From IMG/VR virus record IMGVR_UViG_2671180695_000017: a stretch of 8,231 nucleotides of DNA; one strand, 5' to 3'. This document shows positions 1-8,231 of the stretch, in pieces (position 1 is the first letter of the stretch; every line of letters starts with the position of its first letter). The notes beneath the pieces were generated by a model, which saw only the letters and a program-made list of their open reading frames with translations, had not been told where the DNA came from and did no database searches. The DNA comes from a virus (taxonomy: Duplodnaviria > Heunggongvirae > Uroviricota > Caudoviricetes). The position numbers were made by a program, and so were the translations under genes.

Positions 1-102
1 TGGGATGAACTGGTTATCCGCCTGGGGCGTTCGCCTGCGCAGCGTTGCGTGAATCACATTTCTGAACCGGACACTGAAATTCCGCCGGGCTTCAGGGGGT
101 AA
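1..102 (+). CDS. 3' end of an upstream ORF running in from the window edge (partial, function unknown)
   Basis: Frame 1 is open from position 1 to a TAA stop at 100-102 (translation ends ...SEPDTEIPPGFRG). No start is visible and I do not recognise the family. Confidence 0.3.
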   Translation, partial: WDELVIRLGRSPAQRCVNHISEPDTEIPPGFRG

Positions 103-142
103 GTGTTAATTTCTGGTCATGAGGTAATTTTCAGGAGGGCTT

Positions 143-568
143 GTGGCAAAAGTTTTTACACAAGAAGAGCGGGAGAAAATTAAAGGGCAGGTTGTTGAAC
201 TCGTACGCCAGAGTGGGCGCGAGACGTTACGACAACTGGAAACTAAAACTGGGGCAACAAGATATCTGATGAGCGTTCTGGCCAGAGAACTGGTTGCCAG
301 TGGCGATGTATACAACTCTGGTTACGGGTTATTCCCGTCTGAACAGGCGCGTAAGGACTGGCAAAATGCTCGCAAAAAACTCTCAAGGGCAAAGGTGAAG
401 AAACCTGCAGTGGTTGATCCGGACCTTATCTGGTCGTTACCAGACGGCGAAATACGCCGCTACGACAGGCGCCTGAATATAATCTGTCGCGAGTGCCGGA
501 AGAGCGAAGCTATGCAGCGTGTACTGGCATTTTATCAAGGAAATGTTAGGTATTTTAGACGTTACTAG
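143..568 (+). CDS. Hypothetical prophage protein (141 aa, basic C-terminus)
   Basis: ORF from the six-frame track with a GTG start at 143 preceded by AGGAGG at 133-138 (4-nt spacer, slightly short). GC content is typical of the prophage backbone. No recognisable motif. Confidence 0.5.
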   Translation: MAKVFTQEEREKIKGQVVELVRQSGRETLRQLETKTGATRYLMSVLARELVASGDVYNSGYGLFPSEQARKDWQNARKKLSRAKVKKPAVVDPDLIWSLPDGEIRRYDRRLNIICRECRKSEAMQRVLAFYQGNVRYFRRY

Positions 569-721
569 ATTAAAGAGCATTAGTTCAGATGTGAATTGAC
601 ATTTTCATGGCGCAGGGTAGAGCCAGCGTGGTTGTCCGCTTTGCGTCAAAACCAGATATTACCAGATTTAGACATATATTCCCGATAGCCCTGCTCTGAT
701 GCTACACTCTGTGCTATTTTC

Positions 722-1408
722 ATGACCCCAATAAAAATATTTATGACTATTGCTGATTTCAAACGGCCTAAATTGGAGCTCCCAAACGGGGCAAACAAAC
801 TACTACTGCACTCTTGCTGTGCTCCATGTTCCGGTGAAGTGATGGAGGCGCTTCAGGCCTCGGGAATCGACTACACCATCTTTTTCTACAACCCGAACAT
901 TCATCCTCAGAAAGAGTATTTAATTCGTAAGGATGAAAATATTCGCTTTGCTGAACAACACGGCGTGCCGTTTATCGATGCTGATTACGACACCGACAAC
1001 TGGTTTGAACGTGCCAAAGGAATGGAATGGGAGCCTGAGAGGGGGATCCGTTGTACCATGTGTTTTGACATGCGTTTTGAGCGGACAGCGTTGTACGCTG
1101 CTGAAAATGGTTTCAGTGTGATCAGCAGTTCACTGGGCATTTCACGCTGGAAAAATATGCAGCAGGTTAACGAGTGTGGGCGGCGAGCTGTTGCGCATTA
1201 TCCGGGTATGGTGTACTGGGATTATAACTGGCGCAAGCAGGGCGGCTCGTCCCGTATGATTGAAATCAGCAAGCGCGAAAAATTCTATCAGCAGGAATAT
1301 TGTGGCTGTGTGTATTCTCTGCGCGATACCAATCTACACCGCAAATCTCAGGGACGCCCTCTTATCAAAATTGGCCAACTCCACTACGGAAAAGAAGAGA
1401 AGGAGTGA
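722..1408 (+). CDS. QueH-like protein (DUF208 family, putative epoxyqueuosine reductase)
   Basis: 228-aa ORF with the N-proximal motif [11 protein letters not shown], which I recall as the hallmark CCAPC cysteine cluster of DUF208/QueH, plus further conserved Cys (CTMC, CGC). No obvious Shine-Dalgarno before the ATG at 722; an alternative ATG lies at 743. Family assignment is from motif memory, not a search. Confidence 0.55.
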
Positions 1409-1440
1409 TTTTATGGATCACCTTTCTGATTGATTTCATA

Positions 1441-1469
1441 TTGGCGAGGTGACGTGAGTTAAGTAGAAT
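1441..1469 (+). promoter_or_regulatory. Putative sigma70 promoter for the hok-family mRNA
   Basis: TTGGCG at 1441-1446 (-35) and TAGAAT at 1464-1469 (-10, 5 of 6 to consensus) with a 17-nt spacer. The predicted start near 1476 sits just before the 5' element at 1473-1487 that is complementary to the 3' end of the locus. Confidence 0.3.
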
Positions 1470-1534
1470 GGCTGCGGGTGCTTGAGGCTATCTGTCTCAG
1501 GCATGAACACTGAAAGGCAGATAGAGAAAAGCCC

Positions 1535-1597
1535 CAGTTAACATTTCGCGTCCTGCAAGACGCTTAACATTAATCTGAGGCCCAATCTATGTCTCAC
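1535..1597 (-). ncRNA. Putative Sok-like antisense RNA (antitoxin of the hok-family locus); ends approximate
   Basis: By analogy with hok/sok and the K-12 hokC/mokC/sokC locus, the antisense RNA overlaps the mok start and SD. On the minus strand there is a candidate -35 TTGCCT (+ coordinates 1627-1632), a 17-nt spacer and a weak -10 TAACCT (1604-1609), giving a start near 1597 that would cover the mok ATG (1589-1591) and its GAGG SD (1577-1580). The 3' end is not defined. Confidence 0.25.
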
Positions 1598-1801
1598 AAA
1601 TGTAGGTTAGCCTCTTACGTGCCGAAAGGCAAGGGGAAGCAGGCTATGAAGCAGCAAAAGGCGATGTTAATCGCCCTGATCGTCATCTGTTTAACCGTCA
1701 TAGTGACGGCACTGGTAACGAGGAAAGACCTCTGCGAGGTACGACTCCGAACCGGCCAGACGGAGGTCGCTGTCTTCACAGCTTACGAACCTGAGGAGTA
1801 A
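1589..1801 (+). CDS. Mok-like ORF: in-frame N-terminal extension of the hok-family toxin frame
   Basis: ATG at 1589 with a GAGG SD at 1577-1580 (8-nt spacer), in the same frame and sharing the stop with the toxin ORF. This matches my recollection that K-12 mokC is an in-frame extension of hokC. Confidence 0.5.
   Translation: MSHKCRLASYVPKGKGKQAMKQQKAMLIALIVICLTVIVTALVTRKDLCEVRLRTGQTEVAVFTAYEPEE
1646..1801 (+). CDS. hok: Hok/Gef-family type I toxin (51-aa small membrane peptide)
   Basis: Translation MKQQKAMLIALIVICLTVIVTALVTRKDLCEVRLRTGQTEVAVFTAYEPEE is colinear with and close to E. coli Gef/HokC as I recall it (MKQHKAMIVALIVICITAVVAALVTRKDLCEVHIRTGQTEVAVFTAYESE). Strong SD AAGGGGA at 1631-1637 with an 8-nt spacer; hydrophobic transmembrane segment followed by the conserved RKDLCEV...TGQTEVA motif. 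Confidence 0.85.
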   Translation: MKQQKAMLIALIVICLTVIVTALVTRKDLCEVRLRTGQTEVAVFTAYEPEE

Positions 1802-1869
1802 GAGACCTGGCGGGGGAGAAATCCCTCGCCACCTCTGATGTGTCAGGCATCCTCAACGCACCCGCACTT

Positions 1870-1898
1870 AACCCGGTTCGGCGGGTTTTGTTTTTTTC
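1870..1898 (+). terminator. Intrinsic terminator of the hok-family transcript
   Basis: Stem AACCCG / CGGGTT (1870-1875 pairing with 1882-1887), 6-nt loop, followed by TTTTGTTTTTTT. Immediately preceded by the fbi-like element at 1851-1866. Confidence 0.6.
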
Positions 1899-1968
1899 TG
1901 GCATTCTGGTTTACAATTCGCACGTCAGCCTGAACACCTGACACCTGCTGCGCCAGCAGAGAAAACAG

Positions 1969-2241
1969 ATGGCGCACAAAACCAAATTTCACAATTCTGA
2001 TACCGACCTTGCCATCCGGCATGGGCGGCGTTCACACGCATTTAAAACCGACTGGTACCAACACCCACCATGTACTGAAGAACAGGCCGAATGGCTAATT
2101 CATAACTACCGCAGACGCGGATACGAGATTAAGAAAGCCCTCAGCCTCGATTATCGTCACTGGATAATCTCCGTCAGGCTTCCTTACTCTGAACGCCCAC
2201 CGCGTCCGTCCCGCACATTCCAGCAACGCATCTGGAGGTAA
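1969..2241 (+). CDS. Hypothetical prophage protein (90 aa)
   Basis: ORF with ATG at 1969; its TAA stop (2239-2241) lies 1 nt before the GTG start of the next gene, suggesting translational coupling. Weak SD, no recognisable family. Confidence 0.45.
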   Translation: MAHKTKFHNSDTDLAIRHGRRSHAFKTDWYQHPPCTEEQAEWLIHNYRRRGYEIKKALSLDYRHWIISVRLPYSERPPRPSRTFQQRIWR

Positions 2242-2242
2242 C

Positions 2243-3525
2243 GTGCGGGTATTACTTCGACCTGTTCTGGTACCGGAACTCGGGCTGGTGATCGTTAAGC
2301 CGGGCCGTGAATCCATGCCGGTATTCCACAATACCCGGGTACTGGTGGAGCCGGAACCGAAAAGCATGCGTAATCTGTCGTCCGGGGTCGTTCCTGCCGT
2401 TCGCCAGCCGCTGGCGGAGGATAAATCATTACTGCCATTTTTCAGCGACGAACGAGTGATTCGTGCTGCTGGTGGCGCTGGCGCATTGTCTGACTGGTTA
2501 CTGCGCCATGTTAAATCCTGCCAGTGGCCACACGGCGATTATCACCACAGTGAAACCGTCATTCACCGTTATGGTACCGGCGCAATGGTGTTGTGCTGGC
2601 ACTGCGACAACCAGCTGCGCGACCAGACCTCCGAATCACTCGGGCAACTTGCTCACCAAAACCTGTTTGCATGGATGATTGACGTCATACGCCATGCAAT
2701 GAATGGCTCGCAGGAACGGGAATTATCGCTGGCTGAATTATCCTGGTGGGCGGTCCGCAATCAGGTGGCGGACGCGCTACCGGAAGCGGTATTACGTCAG
2801 GTACCGGCGCAATGGTGTTGTGCTGGCACTGCGACAACCAGCTGCGCGACCAGACCTCCGAATCACTCGGGCAACTTGCTCACCAAAACCTGTCTGCATG
2901 GATGATTGACGTCATACTCCATGCAATGATTGGCTCGCAGGAACGGGAATTATCGCTGGCTGAATTATCCTGGTGGGCGGTCCGCAATCAGGTGGCGGAC
3001 GCGCTACCGGAAGCGGTATTACGTCGTTCGCTGGGGTTGCGTGCGGAAAAAATCCGCTCAATGTACCGTGAAAGCGACATCGTACCGGGAGAGCAGACCG
3101 CCACCAGCATACTGAAGCAGCGCACAAAAAATCTTGCGCCGCTGCCTCACGCCCACCAGCAAAACCCGCCACAGGAAAAGACGGTGGTCAGCATTGCCGT
3201 TGATCCGGAGTCACCGGCTCAGTATCTCCAGCGCCAGAAATCACAACGGGAAGAGATGCCTGTATACACGCGTTGGGTAAAAACGCAGAAATGCATGACG
3301 TGTGGCAATCAGGCAGATGATCCGCATCACATCATTGGTCATGGACTGGGAGGGATGGGAACAAAGGCTGATGATTTGTTTGTTATTCCGCTGTGCCGTA
3401 AATGCCATAGCGAACTACACGCCGGGGTAAAAGATTTTGAAGAAAAACACGGCAGCCAGCTGTTGTTGCTGATTCGTTTTTTAATGCACGCGAGAAATTC
3501 GGGTGTTTTGAAGTGGAAAGCATAA
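2243..3525 (+). pseudogene. YbcO-like (DUF1364-type) zinc-binding putative nuclease gene with N-terminal extension, frame-disrupted by a 227-bp tandem duplication
   Basis: GTG at 2243 with GGAGG at 2234-2238. The frame-2 ORF 2243..2905 and the frame-1 ORF 2746..3525 encode the same ~75-aa stretch (GTGAMVLCWHCDNQLRDQTSESLGQLAHQNL...AVRNQVADALPEAVLR) because 2573-2799 is repeated at 2800-3026 (227 nt, equal to 2 mod 3). Removing one copy gives a single continuous 351-codon ORF ending at 3525. The C-terminus (CMTCGNQADDPHHIIGHG...IPLCRKCHSELH) has a CxxC...HH...CxxCH motif and sits directly upstream of rusA, as ybcO does in DLP12. Confidence 0.55.
2573..3026 (+). repeat. Tandem direct duplication, 2 x 227 bp, 3 mismatches between copies
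   Basis: Direct comparison: 2573-2799 and 2800-3026 are identical except three substitutions (ctgtTtgc vs ctgtCtgc; atacGcc vs atacTcc; atgaAtgg vs atgaTtgg). Junction ...attacgtc|ag|gtaccgg. Confidence 0.9.
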
Positions 3526-3906
3526 ATGACTGAACGCATAGAATTTGTTTTGCCTTACCCGCCAACGGTGAACACTTACTGGCGTCGTCGTGGCAGCACA
3601 TATTTTGTATCAAAAGCCGGGGAGCGTTATCGCCGGGCAGTGGCGCTTATTGTTCGCCAGCAGCGGCTGAAATTAAGCCTGTCCGGAAGGTTGGCAATAA
3701 AAATTATTGCAGAACCACCGGATAAGCGCCGCCGTGACCTGGACAATATTCTGAAAGCGCCGCTGGATGCGCTGACGCATGCGGGGTTGCTAATGGACGA
3801 TGAGCAGTTTGATGAAATCAATATCGTTCGTGCTCAGCCAGTATCTGGTGGACGTCTGGGGGTGAAGATTTACCCCATAATGCTTGAAGGGCAGGTCAAA
3901 AAATGA
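3526..3906 (+). CDS. rusA: RusA-family Holliday junction resolvase
   Basis: 126-aa protein with PPDKRRRDLDNILKAPLDALTHAGLLMDDEQ and GGRLGV, matching the conserved RusA core as I recall it for E. coli RusA ([23 protein letters not shown]...DD...GGRL). The ATG overlaps the upstream stop (TAAATG). Confidence 0.85.
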   Translation: MTERIEFVLPYPPTVNTYWRRRGSTYFVSKAGERYRRAVALIVRQQRLKLSLSGRLAIKIIAEPPDKRRRDLDNILKAPLDALTHAGLLMDDEQFDEINIVRAQPVSGGRLGVKIYPIMLEGQVKK

Positions 3907-4724
3907 AACTGGAAGATTTACCGAAATACTACTCCCCAAAATCCCCCGGCCTGACTGATGCATCGGCCTCAACGTCGAAAGATGCGCTGAGTATCACTGA
4001 TGTGATGGCCGCGCAGGGCATGACACCGAATCGGGCTGAGATGGGGTTTTCTGCGTTCCTTGGGAAAATGGGCATTAGTATGAATGACAGAGAGCGGGCA
4101 ACAGAATTGCTGACAGAATATGCACTCAGTCGGTGTGATCGCGTGGCGGCGTTAAGAAAACTCCCGGCAGAAATAAAACCGGTAGTGATGCGCATTATGG
4201 CTTCGTACGCTTTTGAGGATTATGCCCGCAGCGCAGCGAGTAAAAAGCAGTGCCCTTGTTGCTATGGGGAAAAATTTATTGAAAGCGTAGTTTTTACAAA
4301 CAAGGTCCAGTATCCGGATGGTAAGCCGCCGGTATGGGCAAAGTGTACGAAAGGTGTGTATCCGTCTTACTGGGAAGAATGGAAAAAAGTCAGGGAGGTG
4401 GTAAAAGTTGCCTGTCCGGAGTGTGGCGGAAAGGGTGAGGTTTCCACCGCCTGTAAGGATTGCCGTGGGCGTGGTGTCGCCATTCATCGTGAAGAGTCGG
4501 TAAAACGTGGTATGCCTGTTATCAGAGACTGCCAGCGTTGTGGTGGTCGTGGCTGTGAAAGACTACCATCAACGGAGGCATTTAATGCCATATGCAAAGT
4601 GACGAGTGCTATCACGCTTGATACGTGGAAAAAATCAGTGAAACGCTTTTACGATACGTTGGTGGTTCGGTTTGACATTGAAGAGGCATGGGCGGAGCGG
4701 CAGTTAAAGAGGGTAACGCGATAG
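3903..4724 (+). CDS. Putative late-gene antiterminator (Q-like) with DnaJ-type CxxCxGxG zinc-finger repeats
   Basis: Position is diagnostic: directly after rusA (ATGA overlap) and directly before a promoter that matches lambda PR' through its -10 and initial transcribed region. The protein carries CPCC plus three CxxCxGxG repeats (CPECGGKG, CKDCRGRG, CQRCGGRG). The N-terminus resembles what I recall of Qin-prophage Q homologues, but that recollection is not secure. Confidence 0.55.
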   Translation: MKLEDLPKYYSPKSPGLTDASASTSKDALSITDVMAAQGMTPNRAEMGFSAFLGKMGISMNDRERATELLTEYALSRCDRVAALRKLPAEIKPVVMRIMASYAFEDYARSAASKKQCPCCYGEKFIESVVFTNKVQYPDGKPPVWAKCTKGVYPSYWEEWKKVREVVKVACPECGGKGEVSTACKDCRGRGVAIHREESVKRGMPVIRDCQRCGGRGCERLPSTEAFNAICKVTSAITLDTWKKSVKRFYDTLVVRFDIEEAWAERQLKRVTR

Positions 4725-4729
4725 TGTTG

Positions 4730-4770
4730 TTGATTTTTCCCGAATCTGTGGTAAATTTGCTCTAACGATG
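4730..4770 (+). promoter_or_regulatory. Late promoter PR'-like with sigma70-dependent pause element (likely Q-utilisation region)
   Basis: TTGATT (4730-4735), 16-nt spacer, TAAATT (4752-4757), then AACGATGGG (4764-4772). The stretch GGTAAATTTGCTCTAACGATGGG closely parallels lambda PR' as I recall it (GGTAAATTTGACTCAACGATGGG), including the -10-like AACGAT in the initial transcribed region. Confidence 0.5.
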
Positions 4771-4805
4771 GGCGTTTTATGCCTGACGTTAGAAGATTTT
4801 TTACA

Positions 4806-4830
4806 CCCCGCCGCCTGGCGGGTTTTTTAT
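4806..4830 (+). terminator. tR'-like intrinsic terminator downstream of the late promoter
   Basis: Stem CCCGCC / GGCGGG (4807-4812 pairing with 4817-4822), GCCT loop, followed by TTTTTT (4823-4828). Lies ~45-65 nt downstream of the predicted late start, so a short terminated transcript is expected without Q. Confidence 0.6.
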
Positions 4831-4950
4831 GACTGAAATCGCGTCAGTACAGTAAACGCGCTGGTGGCGGTGAATACCTGTCTTTCAGCTTGCTGGCTTT
4901 TTCGACAAGAGTTATTGGTGTGTCACGTTAACCGGAAAAGGGAAAAAGAC

Positions 4951-5148
4951 ATGCTAAAACAGCAGGATATGACAGAAACCGCCAGAGTAGTGTTTAATGA
5001 ATTAAGCGTTACCGAACCGGCGACAGTCGGGGAGATTGCACAGAATACTTACCTTTCACGCGAACGCTGCCAGTTAATACTGACCCAGCTGGTTATGGCG
5101 GGTCTGGCAGACTATCAGTTCGGTTGTTACAGACGCCTTCCGCAGTGA
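4951..5148 (+). CDS. Small putative winged-helix DNA-binding protein (65 aa)
   Basis: ATG at 4951 with AAGGG SD about 8 nt upstream. I prefer this over the tracked GTG at 4864, which has no SD. The stretch TVGEIAQNTYLSRERCQLILTQLVMAGL looks like a helix-turn-helix or winged-helix recognition region. First gene of the Q-dependent late transcript. Confidence 0.45.
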   Translation: MLKQQDMTETARVVFNELSVTEPATVGEIAQNTYLSRERCQLILTQLVMAGLADYQFGCYRRLPQ

Positions 5149-5160
5149 AGGCTTTTTTAT
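5135..5160 (+). terminator. Intrinsic terminator overlapping the stop codon of the small wHTH gene
   Basis: Stem GCCTTC / GAAGGC (5135-5140 pairing with 5147-5152), loop CGCAGT, then TTTTTT (5153-5158). The TGA stop (5146-5148) lies inside the hairpin. Confidence 0.5.
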
Positions 5161-5175
5161 TTGTGGTAAATGGGC

Positions 5176-5206
5176 GGCTGGTGGGTGTTAGGGGCACCCA
5201 CCAGCC
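5176..5206. repeat. Perfect 12-bp inverted repeat with 7-nt spacer in the methyltransferase leader
   Basis: GGCTGGTGGGTG ttagggg CACCCACCAGCC, with no T-run after it. Two further hairpins follow (5248-5266, stem CTGCTTT/AAAGCAG; 5271-5289, stem AGCCT/AGGCT) before the methyltransferase ATG at 5299. Confidence 0.7.
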
Positions 5207-5298
5207 ATCTGCTCATGCGTTGGGTTCACAAGCAAACCTCAGGCCCACTGCTTTGCGCAAAAGCAGAATGAGCCTATCAGAGACAGGCTTAATGATCC

Positions 5299-6348
5299 AT
5301 GCTTAATACTGTAAAAATATCCAGTTGTGAGTTAATCAACGCCGACTGCCTGGAATTTATCCGGTCGTTACCCGAAAATTCTGTTGACCTGATAGTCACG
5401 GACCCGCCGTACTTTAAAGTGAAGCCTGAGGGCTGGGATAACCAGTGGAAGGGCGACGATGATTACCTGAAGTGGCTGGACCAGTGTCTGGCGCAGTTCT
5501 GGCGGGTGCTGAAACCTGCCGGAAGTCTTTACCTGTTCTGTGGTCATCGCCTGGCATCTGATATCGAAATCATGATGCGTGAACGCTTCAGTGTGCTGAA
5601 CCATATTATCTGGGCGAAGCCGTCCGGACGCTGGAACGGATGCAACAAGGAAAGCCTGCGGGCGTATTTCCCCGCCACAGAGCGCATTCTGTTCGCGGAA
5701 CATTATCAGGGGCCGTATCGTCCGAAAGATGCCGGGTATGCGGCGAAGGGCAGTGCACTGAAACAGCATGTGATGGCCCCGCTGATTTCTTACTTTCGTG
5801 ATGCGCGCGCGGCCCTGGGGATAACGGCAAAACAGATTGCAGATGCCACAGGAAAGAAAAACATGGTGTCGCACTGGTTCAGTGCCAGTCAGTGGCAGCT
5901 ACCGAACGAAAGCGATTATCTGAAATTACAGTCGCTGTTTGCCCGGGTGGCAGAAGAGAAACATCAGCGCGGTGAACTGGAAAAGCCCCACCACCAGCTG
6001 GTGGATACGTATACGTCACTGAACCGGCAGTATGTGGAGCTGCAGAGTGAATATAAGCATCTGCGGCGGTATTTTGGTGTGACGGCGCAGGTGCCGTACA
6101 CGGATGTGTGGACACATAAACCGGTGCAGTTCTATCCCGGGAAACATCCGTGCGAAAAACCGGCAGAAATGCTGCAGCAGATAATCAGCGCAAGCAGTCG
6201 TCCGGGTGACCTGGTTGCAGATTTTTTTATGGGCTCAGGTTCAACGGTAAAAGCTGCACTGGCGCTCGGGCGTCGTGCGATTGGCGTTGAACTGGAGACC
6301 GGACGTTTTGAGCAGACAGTCAGGGAAGTTCAGGATTTAATCGTTTGA
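5299..6348 (+). CDS. Orphan DNA methyltransferase, beta-class (DPPY motif IV N-terminal, FxGxG motif I C-terminal); probably N6-adenine-specific
   Basis: DPPYF at residues 35-39 (nt 5401-5415) and FFMGSGST near the C-terminus (around nt 6224-6247), in the circularly permuted order typical of beta-class amino-methyltransferases. No restriction endonuclease gene is adjacent. Confidence 0.85.
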   Translation: MLNTVKISSCELINADCLEFIRSLPENSVDLIVTDPPYFKVKPEGWDNQWKGDDDYLKWLDQCLAQFWRVLKPAGSLYLFCGHRLASDIEIMMRERFSVLNHIIWAKPSGRWNGCNKESLRAYFPATERILFAEHYQGPYRPKDAGYAAKGSALKQHVMAPLISYFRDARAALGITAKQIADATGKKNMVSHWFSASQWQLPNESDYLKLQSLFARVAEEKHQRGELEKPHHQLVDTYTSLNRQYVELQSEYKHLRRYFGVTAQVPYTDVWTHKPVQFYPGKHPCEKPAEMLQQIISASSRPGDLVADFFMGSGSTVKAALALGRRAIGVELETGRFEQTVREVQDLIV

Positions 6349-6397
6349 AACGGATGAGATTGCAGAATTAATTACGCACCATTATTATTCTGCTTCC

Positions 6398-6473
6398 GGC
6401 CCTTTAGCTCAGTGGTGAGAGCGAGCGACTCATAATCGCCAGGTCGCTGGTTCAAATCCAGCAAGGGCCACCA
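6398..6473 (+). tRNA. tRNA with CAU anticodon, closest to E. coli tRNA-Ile2 (lysidine type, reads AUA); phage ileZ-like
   Basis: Manual cloverleaf: acceptor GGCCCTT/AAGGGCC, D-arm GCTC-AGTGGTGA-GAGC, anticodon loop CTCATAA (CAT at 6431-6433), T-arm GCTGG-TTCAAAT-CCAGC, discriminator A plus encoded CCA. Very similar to E. coli ileX as I recall it. Position 27-43 is an A-C mismatch. Confidence 0.85.
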
Positions 6474-6480
6474 TCACAAA

Positions 6481-6560
6481 CCGCCATTAGCTTATCAGGA
6501 AGAGCAGACGACACGATAACAGGGTTGTTGGTGCGGGGGCGGGTCCCCGATGGCGGTCCA
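6481..6560 (+). pseudogene. Degenerate tRNA-like element between the two tRNAs (possible decayed argN-type tRNA)
   Basis: A 7-bp acceptor-like stem (CCGCCAT 6481-6487 pairing with ATGGCGG 6550-6556) followed by TCCA, a plausible D-arm (GCTT-ATCAGGAA-GAGC) and a 5-bp GC T-like stem (6534-6538 / 6545-6549). But the T-loop is 6 nt (GCGGGT, not TTCRANY) and I could not fold a canonical anticodon arm. Confidence 0.25.
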
Positions 6561-6573
6561 TTATCGGTATTCA

Positions 6574-6650
6574 GCGTTGTTAGCTCAGCCGGACAGAGCA
6601 ATTGCCTTCTAAGCAATCGGTCACTGGTTCGAATCCAGTACAGCGCGCCA
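6574..6650 (+). tRNA. tRNA-Arg (anticodon UCU, reads AGA/AGG); phage argO/argN-like
   Basis: Manual cloverleaf: acceptor GCGTTGT/ACAGCGC (one G-U pair), D-arm GCTC-AGCCGGACA-GAGC, anticodon stem ATTGC/GCAAT with loop CTTCTAA (TCT at 6608-6610), T-arm ACTGG-TTCGAAT-CCAGT, discriminator G plus CCA. Resembles E. coli argU. Confidence 0.85.
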
Positions 6651-6757
6651 TATTCATTCTTCCAGATTCCTTTCGGCAGAGCCTTATACTGAAATATACC
6701 TGGCTCAGGATATTGTTGAAAATATTATATGTTTGTCAAAAATAAAAGTTCTGTTAA

Positions 6758-7114
6758 GTGTTGATTGAGTGTTTGTTATACGGTCTAATGGTTTTTTCAG
6801 CATTAAATATTTATCATTCATATGGTGTGGGTAGAGTGAATATTGATGAGGCGTCGGGGTGTTTCATCCTTAGGCAGCGTATTGATATAGTCAATGCAGA
6901 ACGAGCAAAGGCCTTCAGCCGTTTGACAGTTTTGTTCTGTACTCCTGATCGTCTTTCGGGAAGAGACGTTATTATTCTGAATAGTGATGCTATACAGAGG
7001 GTTTGCGATGAGTTCATGGTTGCTAATTCAGAATTATTTGCTCTTGTTCAGGAGTACAACAGAATAGCCAGGACCTGTGGTATGGATGAACTTCGGATTA
7101 CTCATCTGGGGTAG
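6758..7114 (+). CDS. Hypothetical cargo ORF (up to 118 aa; start uncertain)
   Basis: Longest ORF in the AT-rich island. Candidate starts are GTG 6758, ATG 6788 and GTG 6836 (the last with a weak GGGTAGAG SD-like element); none has a convincing RBS. No recognisable motif. Confidence 0.3.
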   Translation: MLIECLLYGLMVFSALNIYHSYGVGRVNIDEASGCFILRQRIDIVNAERAKAFSRLTVLFCTPDRLSGRDVIILNSDAIQRVCDEFMVANSELFALVQEYNRIARTCGMDELRITHLG

Positions 7115-7194
7115 ATACATATCTGGATTATCACCTGTTACGGTAAAAAGTGATTGCTTACTGTTTTTGTGAATGGCATTGCAGCAGCCGGATA

Positions 7195-7281
7195 ATGTCA
7201 GTGCTGGCTGACGGTGTGCTGGTGGCGGGTGTGGTGGTTGCTGCTTTCCCGTTGCTGAAAAAGAAAACGCCAGACTGTTAG
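7195..7281 (+). CDS. Candidate small hydrophobic peptide ORF (28 aa) in the ORF-poor cargo spacer
   Basis: ATG 7195 to TAG 7279-7281 encodes MSVLADGVLVAGVVVAAFPLLKKKTPDC, a hydrophobic helix-length segment followed by KKK. The SD is weak (GGA 2 nt upstream), so this may be a chance ORF in GT-rich sequence. Confidence 0.15.
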   Translation: MSVLADGVLVAGVVVAAFPLLKKKTPDC

Positions 7282-7505
7282 CCGGGTATCAGTTAGCGGG
7301 AGAAATTTTTAAATACTTCACAATTCAGGCGGTTGATTGTTGTCTGGTTTGCGGGGAGTTTGTTAAAAGAAACTGGCATGGTGAATCCCCCTGTGCGGAG
7401 GGGCAATCAGCGAGTAGGTATATGGGATAATCGCGGATTCAGGTGCTGGTACTGAATTCACCGGGAGGCACCCGGCACCATGCAATGGCACATAGCGCCA
7501 CTCTC

Positions 7506-7535
7506 CAGCCCCTCTCCGGAGGGGCTGTTTATATT
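7506..7535 (+). terminator. Strong intrinsic terminator (+ strand) between the convergent cargo ORFs
   Basis: Perfect 9-bp GC-rich stem CAGCCCCTC / GAGGGGCTG (7506-7514 pairing with 7519-7527), TCCG tetraloop, followed by TTTATATTGATTTT. The opposite strand lacks a T-tract after the hairpin, so it is oriented to stop + strand transcripts. Confidence 0.55.
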
Positions 7536-7561
7536 GATTTTGTCAGATGTGAGTAAACTCC

Positions 7562-7897
7562 TTATGGACTTTGTTGTTTTAGTCCATAAGGACATATTTG
7601 CAGAGTGCAACGGTTATTAAAGCATTCATTCAATACGTTATCTGTATTTGTAGGGCATTCCTGGCTGTTTTTGATTAAATTCCAGAATGTTTTATTGAAT
7701 GGTACTACGTTGTAAATGGTTACAGGTAGCACTTTGTTATTGAGCATGATGCCTGTGTGAGTCAGTGTAAATATACTTTCAGGAGGTAAGAAAGCATCCG
7801 ATTGATACCAGATTATTAATTTTATTTTACTCCATATGACTGAAAAAGATATTCCGCATGATGGCTGGATAACTGTATCAATCACAATCCACTTCAT
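7562..7897 (-). CDS. Hypothetical cargo protein (111 aa) with C-terminal cysteine cluster, encoded antisense to the late operon
   Basis: ATG (7895-7897 on the minus strand) preceded by AAGGA with a 5-nt spacer. C-terminal C-x10-C-x4-C-x4-C pattern ([23 protein letters not shown]). The last 9 codons and the TAA stop lie inside a perfect 10-bp hairpin (7561-7590). About 33% GC. Confidence 0.45.
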
Positions 7898-8157
7898 TTA
7901 GTTTCCTTGTTTATGCCTTGCTGGTGATGTTCTGAAAAGTATAAATGATATTTTTGATTGTAAACCATAGAGCAGAATTATTTTTCTGATGTTGTTTATT
8001 GTTTATTTAAATGCAGGGTGGTTTATATCTCGTCTTGTAGTTTATCCATGCATATCTGCTTGATGATGAGGTTTTTATTTAAGGTATGGTTTTGTGTTTT
8101 TTCTGTATTACATGTCAGGTATTTTAAAGAATCATTTTTCAGATGGTGGAAAGAACC

Positions 8158-8231
8158 ATGGCATTTAAACACTATGATGTTGTCAGGGCGGCGTCGCCGT
8201 CAGATCTTGCGGAAAAGCTGACACATAAACT
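8158..8231 (+). CDS. 5' end of a gene running off the window; possibly the DUF1737-type small protein found upstream of holin genes in lambdoid prophages
   Basis: ATG at 8158 with GGTGGAAAG upstream; translation MAFKHYDVVRAASPSDLAEKLTHK in frame 1 continues to the window end. It is not in the ORF track because it is truncated. Family assignment is from recollection of N-termini of this family. Confidence 0.35.
   Translation, partial: MAFKHYDVVRAASPSDLAEKLTHK

Follow-up and report, generated by a model that had tools for sequence, protein, structure and literature searches.

Antitermination by Q controls the late operon of lambda. In phages that encode Shiga toxin 2 (Stx2), the small RNA (sRNA) STnc100 and the Hfq-bound EcOnc27/sRNA103 lie 75 nt downstream of stx2B (PMC12370729, PMC12711010). 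STnc100 is related to PasD1 and PasD2, two sRNAs of enteropathogenic Escherichia coli (EPEC) (bioRxiv 10.64898/2026.05.13.724894; PMC8550237), and the relatives EcOnc27 and PasD are expressed and bind Hfq (PMC12711010, PMC8550237, bioRxiv 10.64898/2026.05.13.724894). The prophage next to potB in strain CFT073 encodes IraL, which binds RssB and stabilises RpoS, as found by two-hybrid and RpoS stability assays (PMC4045071). Where IraL received its name, its identity to IraM of strain K-12 was given as 58.9% by ClustalW (PMC4045071), and iraL is transcribed from a sigma-70-type promoter (Hryckowian et al., PMC4045071). Here we examine a stretch of 8,231 nt of tailed-phage DNA (IMG/VR record IMGVR_UViG_2671180695_000017; the window), in which an AT-rich region at 6651-8157 holds iraL and an STnc100-family sRNA gene together with a gene of no assigned function, orf92.

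In our view, with a probability of about 85%, the region is where an E. coli lambdoid prophage carries accessory ("moron") genes within its late-gene regulatory DNA, and it is a three-unit mosaic that is mostly described already. Three out of its four elements have been described, and for one of these the experiments were done on an identical copy; orf92 is the fourth. The first unit is a cargo cassette (~6660-7315) with orf92 and a DUF3927 peptide, which takes the exact place of stx2A-stx2B. The second is the sRNA gene, and the third is an iraL cassette (7537-8157) on the opposite strand. A preliminary description, made from the sequence alone, had proposed a single, independently acquired and possibly undescribed module with a toxin, defence or host-interaction function, located in the slot that holds stxAB in Stx phages. 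The main value of the present analysis is clarification: what had looked like an island of unknown content is the iraL locus, joined to a prophage sRNA gene that was itself already known.

Gene order and composition of the region

The window was compared with 5426 complete E. coli genomes using megablast. Positions 6400-8231 were covered to at least 80% in 863/5426 genomes, with many matches at 99.7%. The orf92 region was present in 1186/5426 genomes (~22%, ST131 and O104:H4 included) and the iraL cassette in 1446/5426, equivalent to 22-27% of the genomes; these counts are a further sign that the two assort independently. From the tRNA-Arg to its end the window was 99% identical over 1658 nt to the CFT073 prophage next to potB (NC_004431.1:1342477-1344140). 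RefSeq features over this block in related genomes are a DUF3927 protein, a short pseudogene and an "anti-adapter protein IraM".

The boundaries set in the preliminary description, an Arg tRNA and a DUF1737-like gene, were borne out. On the left, the tRNA-Arg ends at 6650, and in the alignment with CFT073 and Stx2_95 the Stx2-phage homology runs through it to ~6660 and stops there. On the right, the open reading frame (ORF) from 8158 matched Pfam DUF1737 (E 4e-5), and relatives of 1854 nt carry the annotation "SASA family carbohydrate esterase". G+C was 39.5% in 6651-8157 versus 50.9% in 1-6397. The reported AT-richness of both ORF-bearing parts, about 33% G+C in the 60 nt at 7621-7680, was confirmed (33.3%). 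By part, G+C was 31% in the leader (6651-6835), 44% in orf92, 52% in the DUF3927 gene, 55% in STnc100, 34.5% in the iraL coding sequence and 30% in the iraL upstream region (7898-8157). The low G+C is confined to the two ORF-bearing flanks, and the centre with DUF3927 and the sRNA (7150-7536) is at 51-55%. Two convergent ORFs, 6758-7114 on the plus strand and 7562-7897 on the minus strand, a small hydrophobic-peptide ORF at 7150-7281 and a strong terminator were also present as described. The statement that the two convergent ORFs could not be assigned to a family did not survive database searches, which placed iraL in NF007393, DUF3927 in PF13064 and orf92 in phrog_2873.

Collinear gene orders were found in Stx2 phages. 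In the Stx2a phage Stx2_EH2201 a methyltransferase gene is followed by tRNA(CAT), tRNA-Arg, a second tRNA-Arg, stx2A, stx2B, STnc100, a minus-strand iraM-like gene (75% identical) and yjhS/nanS-p. Stx2_95 has the same order without the iraM-like gene, and the STnc100 element was found 75 nt after stx2B in the Stx2 phages. Judged by this gene order, orf92 and DUF3927 lie in the stx slot, the STnc100 sRNA is a backbone element, and iraL is in a second, separate slot that can coexist with stx2. The proposed stx-equivalent slot therefore applies to ~6651-7346 only, where Stx2_95 and Stx2_EH2201 are collinear with the window; the remainder, with iraL, falls outside it. The iraL-bearing spacer had no counterpart in Stx2_95 or JLK-2012.

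Other phages carry the parts in other combinations. In mEp460_ev081 orf92, DUF3927 and STnc100 are followed by a TolA-like gene and iraL is absent, while vB_EcoS-640R1 has two sRNA copies and iraL without orf92. Because the parts occur separately, the region is not one independently acquired module. What stands of the proposed accessory module is moron cargo of foreign composition, made up of at least three separately assorting units. Two separate cargo slots in such late regions, one before and one after the STnc100 sRNA, should help in reading other prophages.

Among the loci compared (L numbers), another cargo of the slot was a protein of 142 aa whose C-terminal domain is of the TolA type (PF06519, E 2e-22), encoded at 6249-6677 in L003 and at 1810-2238 in L004. 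This protein might serve as a decoy against colicins or phages that depend on Tol.

The iraL cassette and the STnc100-family sRNA gene

The product of the minus-strand ORF passed NCBIfam NF007393 (162 bits versus a cutoff of 121, E 4.7e-48, residues 1-110 of 111) and was 100% identical to CFT073 WP_000871291.1. It was 62% identical to K-12 IraM and matched the IraM crystal-structure chain PDB 8TWD_A (E 9e-32). The exact sequence is Swiss-Prot IRAM_ECO27 and was found on at least 1000 contigs. The published sequence from 5' RACE (rapid amplification of cDNA ends), ACATCACCAGCAAGGCATAAACAAGGAAACCA (PMC4045071), is the reverse complement of 7899-7930 at 31/32 positions, and the single mismatch is a polymorphism relative to CFT073. 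The transcription start of iraL was therefore placed at 7930; the -10 and -35 hexamers assigned to it are our own reading of the sequence. By sequence, then, the minus-strand ORF is iraL, and RssB binding and RpoS stabilisation by this copy are carried over from the identical CFT073 protein. Carried on a prophage, iraL regulates the general stress sigma factor and is enriched in uropathogenic E. coli.

The preliminary description was right to see the opposite-strand gene as independently transcribed and to suggest a host-interaction function. It was wrong to suppose that the module might be undescribed: experiments on iraL have been published (PMC4045071), Rfam holds a curated STnc100 family to which the published sRNAs PasD and EcOnc27 are related (PMC8550237, PMC12711010), and DUF3927 is in Pfam. 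Of the two convergent ORFs, iraL belongs to a well-characterised family and orf92 is conserved with no assigned function.

The sRNA gene was identified using cmscan, which matched the full STnc100 model (positions 1-206) at 132.4 bits versus a gathering score of 47 (E 9e-30). The ORF-poor structured spacer and strong terminator of the preliminary description are thus this sRNA gene. Its terminator is a stem of 9 pairs, with 7 G-C pairs among them, and ends in a T-rich tail. In an alignment of 10 diverged copies the promoter columns TTG(t/c/a)CT, 17 nt and TTAAAA were invariant or nearly so. The 5' end of PasD2, an estimate from RNA sequencing (NC_011601.1:741157, PMC8550237 table S6), aligns to window position 7377. 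Transcription of the present copy would thus start at ~7377, and the mature RNA is probably ~7377-7536. An RNAalifold consensus of 10 STnc100 copies had 31 pairs, 10 of them with compensatory changes on both sides. We regard these changes as supportive and not decisive, since the 10 copies are related. The copy was also considered as PasD itself. It aligns with PasD2 and differs from it in the seed and probe region, and this identity was rejected.

STnc100 copies were found after every cargo cassette seen, namely stx2AB, tciAB, the TolA-like gene and AraC-orf92-DUF3927, and they were duplicated where two cassettes were stacked. Examples are 5425-5618 and 5894-6082 in L002, 2344-2556 and 5650-5839 in L004, and 5352-5547 and 5612 onward in L010. 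The copies could form a shared 3' end of the cassettes and a possible recombination anchor for cargo exchange. The NCBI annotation pipeline PGAP places an "incomplete hypothetical protein" pseudogene antisense to the sRNA, at 7366-7491 on the minus strand and also at 8967-9092 in L001 and 13269-13394 in L013. This pseudogene is probably a false positive, and the unannotated orf92 a false negative.

The units would work as follows. The sRNA would be transcribed from its own conserved sigma-70 promoter (start ~7377) to its strong intrinsic terminator and, by analogy with its Hfq-bound relatives, would be an Hfq-stabilised regulator that base-pairs with mRNAs. The same terminator would also end transcripts entering from the cargo cassette, unless RNA polymerase had been modified by Q and read through from PR'. 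The iraL cassette would be transcribed in the lysogen from its own sigma-70 promoter, independently of Q. IraL would then bind the N-terminal domain of the adaptor RssB and block RpoS delivery to ClpXP, and sigma-S would rise during growth. In this scheme we infer the promoter and start of the sRNA in this copy, the Q-dependent read-through, and any function of orf92 and DUF3927.

The orf92-DUF3927 cargo and alternative readings

The plus-strand ORF was listed as a 118-aa reading frame (6758-7114). This reading was rejected for one of 92 aa, because variants differ by an indel of 4 nt that interrupts the frame further upstream, and CFT073 has ATA in place of the GTG at 6758; orf92 is thus 6836-7114. 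The GTG at 6836 is a start shared with a variant of 68% nucleotide identity. The first 26 codons of the longer ORF lie within the leader and, from these comparisons, are probably untranslated. In the leader itself (6651-6835) there were only weak, non-conserved promoter-like hexamers (TTGAAA-16-AAAAAT, 9/12 matches).

The 92-aa protein matched phrog_2873 over its full length (E 2.5e-58), with phrog_4827 as a distant family. Searches of Pfam, NCBIfam and PADLOC gave no family match, and only PHROG families without assigned function were found. As phrog_2873 has no assigned function, membership explains nothing mechanistically. A sequence profile search of the PDB gave nothing below E 0.04. An exhaustive HMMER search of 1.84 billion proteins gave no more than 22 representative clusters for the family; identity falls to 22-41% among its members, which share the motif ER..AFS.LTV.Y.TPDR...N.EL..LV.EYN. 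Close and distant members both lie just after Q and phage tRNAs, one distant member again following a Q gene and a tRNA. A scan of species-representative genomes returned one E. coli locus only. AlphaFold2 predicted a two-helix hairpin (mean confidence score pLDDT 88.9) with helices at residues 3-34 and 50-81, and the model suggests that orf92 encodes a cytoplasmic two-helix protein. Foldseek comparison of this fold with the PDB returned nothing more specific than helical hairpins of a generic kind (prefoldin beta, hairpins of efflux adaptors and designed helical bundles, for example), with E never under 0.17. A relationship to TciA, the TerB-domain partner of TciB in JLK-2012, was rejected on an hhalign probability of 0.03.

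The diverged orf92 variant (68% nucleotide identity) always lies directly 3' of a gene for a 241-aa AraC-family regulator (HTH_18) in the same post-Q slot. The regulator gene is at 3969-4694 in L010, 2933-3658 in L004 and 164-889 in L009. In L004-L008 an IS3-family element is inserted between the regulator gene and the orf92 variant.

The peptide encoded next to orf92 passed Pfam PF13064 (92.7 bits versus a cutoff of 25, E 1.3e-26) and also matched phrog_1470, "TciB-like" (E 1.5e-11). Its RefSeq entry is WP_000562553.1, "DUF3927 family protein". A literature search yielded no relevant paper on TciB or DUF3927. An STnc100/PasD copy lies directly after the DUF3927 gene in every locus examined: the window, mEp460_ev081, JLK-2012, E2348/69 PP2 and the orf92-variant loci.

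Our best guess, held with low confidence, is that orf92 and DUF3927 encode small proteins of the lysogenic-conversion or exclusion type, which work by partner binding. It is a good deal less than probable that orf92, as a narrow two-helix family, forms with DUF3927 a Q-dependent conversion or exclusion factor with a new mode of action. If it did, the factor would be made on prophage induction, from the exact Shiga toxin position of related phages. Being widespread and in that position, orf92 is a reasonable, not urgent target for functional work.

We think it rather unlikely that orf92, DUF3927 and the sRNA work together as a single unit, such as a small membrane toxin under the control of the neighbouring sRNA, in the manner of type I toxin-antitoxin pairs, to which orf92 would be an accessory. 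The peptide is short with a single transmembrane helix, a hok/sok system is present elsewhere in the same prophage, and an STnc100/PasD copy comes after DUF3927 wherever the latter was seen (the window, L003, L004b, L010, L015 and E2348/69 PP2). However, the sRNA is encoded downstream on the same strand as the DUF3927 gene and does not overlap it, and STnc100 also follows cargos without DUF3927, namely stx2B and the TolA-like gene. PasD targets in the literature are chromosomal and virulence mRNAs (PMC8550237). The best duplexes between the sRNA and DUF3927 mRNA were no better than shuffled controls in three loci. A type I system with a DUF3927 toxin and an RNA antitoxin was rejected because the sRNA is not antisense and the duplex energies are no better than in the shuffled controls.

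There is very little to recommend the idea that the plus-strand ORF (6758/6836-7114) is no gene and arose by chance within filler DNA that is conserved but non-coding. PGAP leaves it unannotated in nearly all of the 1186 genomes (it is a hypothetical protein in O104:H4 strains), its GTG start is preceded by a merely weak Shine-Dalgarno-like sequence, and it has no Pfam or NCBIfam family. Against this, comparison with the copy of 68% nucleotide identity gave no indels and no stops over 92 codons, differences of 24/21/43 by codon position, a ratio of nonsynonymous to synonymous substitution rates (dN/dS) of 0.25, and stops in all other frames. The protein homologues down to 22-41% identity with a common motif, the confident AlphaFold2 model and the existence of a PHROG family point the same way. 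On these comparisons orf92 is a real, selected and conserved gene that the standard annotation pipeline missed.

Least likely of all is that 6651-8157 is one co-acquired, integrated and undescribed toxin or anti-phage defence module: the low G+C of both flanks, a slot known for carrying toxins and the lack of a functional annotation for orf92 would fit it, but it is largely refuted by the independent assortment of the parts, with an iraM-like gene beside stx2AB in the same arrangement, a centre of higher G+C, a demonstrated function of iraL that is neither defence nor toxin (PMC4045071), and no match of orf92, DUF3927 or IraL in PADLOC-DB 2.0 at E up to 0.01, which also gives the defence function first suggested no support.

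The three-unit mosaic is based directly on sequence identity, membership in families, collinearity, selection on the orf92 coding sequence and RNA structure. Several points weigh against it. One third of the region, orf92 and DUF3927, is explained only structurally, and the claims about transcripts in the source strain are carried over by analogy from identical or homologous genes elsewhere. The iraL -35 as read has a short spacer of 15 nt. The single-sequence fold z-score of the sRNA is modest (-1.86), so that it is the Rfam model and the alignment which carry the case for structure. The sRNA copy also differs from PasD1/2 in the published seed region, and PasD targets are therefore not transferable to it.

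Features of the window and comparison with described systems

Table 1. Positions of features in the 8,231-nt window, in the order of the sequence.
Feature	Position	Strand	Remarks
DUF977	143-568		
QueH	722-1408	+	
hok/sok	1476-1801	+	
DUF968	~2243-3525		split
RusA	3526-3906		
Antiterminator Q	3903-4724		PF03589, 273 aa
tR'-like terminators	4758-4822		
Small winged-helix-like ORF	4864-5148	+	phrog_331
N6/N4 DNA methyltransferase	5299-6348		
tRNA(CAT)	6398-6473		ARAGORN
tRNA-Arg (anticodon TCT)	6574..6650	+	left boundary; ARAGORN; Rfam tRNA 68 bits; alignment with CFT073 and Stx2_95
AT-rich region under study	6651-8157		between phage tRNAs and nanS-p (DUF1737) gene
AT-rich leader	6651..6835	+	upstream of orf92, 31% G+C
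orf92	6836..7114	+	92-aa protein, phrog_2873, predicted two-helix hairpin; occupies stx2A/B position
DUF3927 family hydrophobic peptide	7150..7281	+	43 aa, one predicted transmembrane helix (TciB-like)
Putative sigma-70 promoter of sRNA	7340..7368	+	-35 TTGTCT 7340-7345; 17-nt spacer ending TG; -10 TTAAAA 7363-7368
STnc100-family sRNA gene (Rfam RF02076)	7347..7536	+	cmscan; includes intrinsic terminator 7506-7527 plus T-tail
iraL	7562..7897	-	RssB anti-adaptor, IraM family, 111 aa
iraL 5' untranslated region (UTR) and promoter	7898..7972	-	UTR 7898-7930 with AAGGAA Shine-Dalgarno; start 7930; -10 TATACT 7938-7943; -35-like TTTACA 7959-7964
AT-rich spacer	7973..8157	none	~30% G+C; between divergent iraL and nanS-p; part of iraL cassette
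nanS-p-type esterase gene, start	8158..8231	+	right boundary; DUF1737 N-terminus, then SASA domain; cut by window end

Several genes upstream of the region deserve mention. A full-length homologue of QueH, an epoxyqueuosine reductase (PF02677, E 1e-65), lies in the DUF977-hok/sok interval of the prophage early region; this tRNA-modification enzyme is unusual cargo for the site. The hok/sok-type type I toxin-antitoxin locus was identified by Rfam sok (120.5 bits) and a Hok/Gef ORF at 1589-1801 (PF01848). The DUF968 gene holds a 227-bp tandem duplication (2573-2798 and 2800-3025) with copies 99% identical. Since the period is not a multiple of three, the gene is split into overlapping ORFs at 2243-2905 and 2746-3525; in relatives it is a single gene of ~1050 nt. 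The 94-aa ORF at 4864-5148, between the tR'-like terminators and the methyltransferase gene, had weak winged-helix matches (TrmB, MarR, HTH_24) and a strong match to phrog_331 (E 1e-42), and a terminator-like hairpin of its own is at 5135-5152.

In the Ile-Arg-Arg trio of tRNAs that is usual for such phages, the middle tRNA-Arg has decayed (~6481-6560). Its acceptor ends are kept and the central ~45 nt are scrambled compared with CFT073 and Stx2_95; neither ARAGORN nor Rfam called a tRNA there. The tRNA with a CAT anticodon was called as Met by ARAGORN, while the identical gene is tRNA-Ile in RefSeq (ileZ type, presumably lysidine-modified).

The stx2 regions of Stx2_EH2201 and Stx2_95 share with the window the order N6/N4 methyltransferase, tRNA(CAT), tRNA-Arg, cargo, STnc100, an optional minus-strand iraM-like gene, nanS-p/yjhS and holin. 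The window differs in having orf92 and DUF3927 in place of stx2A and stx2B, a decayed middle tRNA-Arg, and a Q gene of a different type (PF03589, 273 aa).

STnc100, EcOnc27/sRNA103 of O157:H7 and PasD1/PasD2 of EPEC E2348/69 occupy the same site as the window sRNA, after the cargo and before nanS-p. The conserved promoter columns are shared, as are the 5' hairpin, the central helices and the terminator, whereas the variable central and 3' single-stranded segments differ. The PasD seed UGUGAG is absent at the aligned position, and the targets probably differ. The DUF3927 peptide is a clear member of the TciB/DUF3927 family (PF13064; phrog_1470) and lies directly upstream of the sRNA gene, as tciB does in phage JLK-2012. 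In contrast to TciB it is shorter (43 versus 54 aa), and its partner is orf92 and not the TerB-domain protein TciA.

K-12 IraM (b1160, beside e14) is induced by Mg2+ starvation through PhoPQ. IraL belongs to the same family (NF007393) and length class as this protein (PDB 8TWD), with the cysteines and the N-terminal half conserved. The genomic context and promoter differ, and IraL has a 4-residue C-terminal extension.

The closest system is IraL of CFT073 (formerly ycgW) on the potB-island prophage. The two loci differ by a few single-nucleotide polymorphisms, one of them in the 5' UTR, and by the one decayed tRNA of the window. Upstream there is a methyltransferase gene in the window versus an IS200 element in CFT073, and downstream of iraL relatives of the window have a full-length esterase gene where CFT073 has a truncated DUF1737 pseudogene. 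The IraL protein is identical, the flanking DNA is 99% identical with the promoter and 5' UTR included, and the neighbours (tRNAs, DUF3927, iraL and the DUF1737 gene) are the same.

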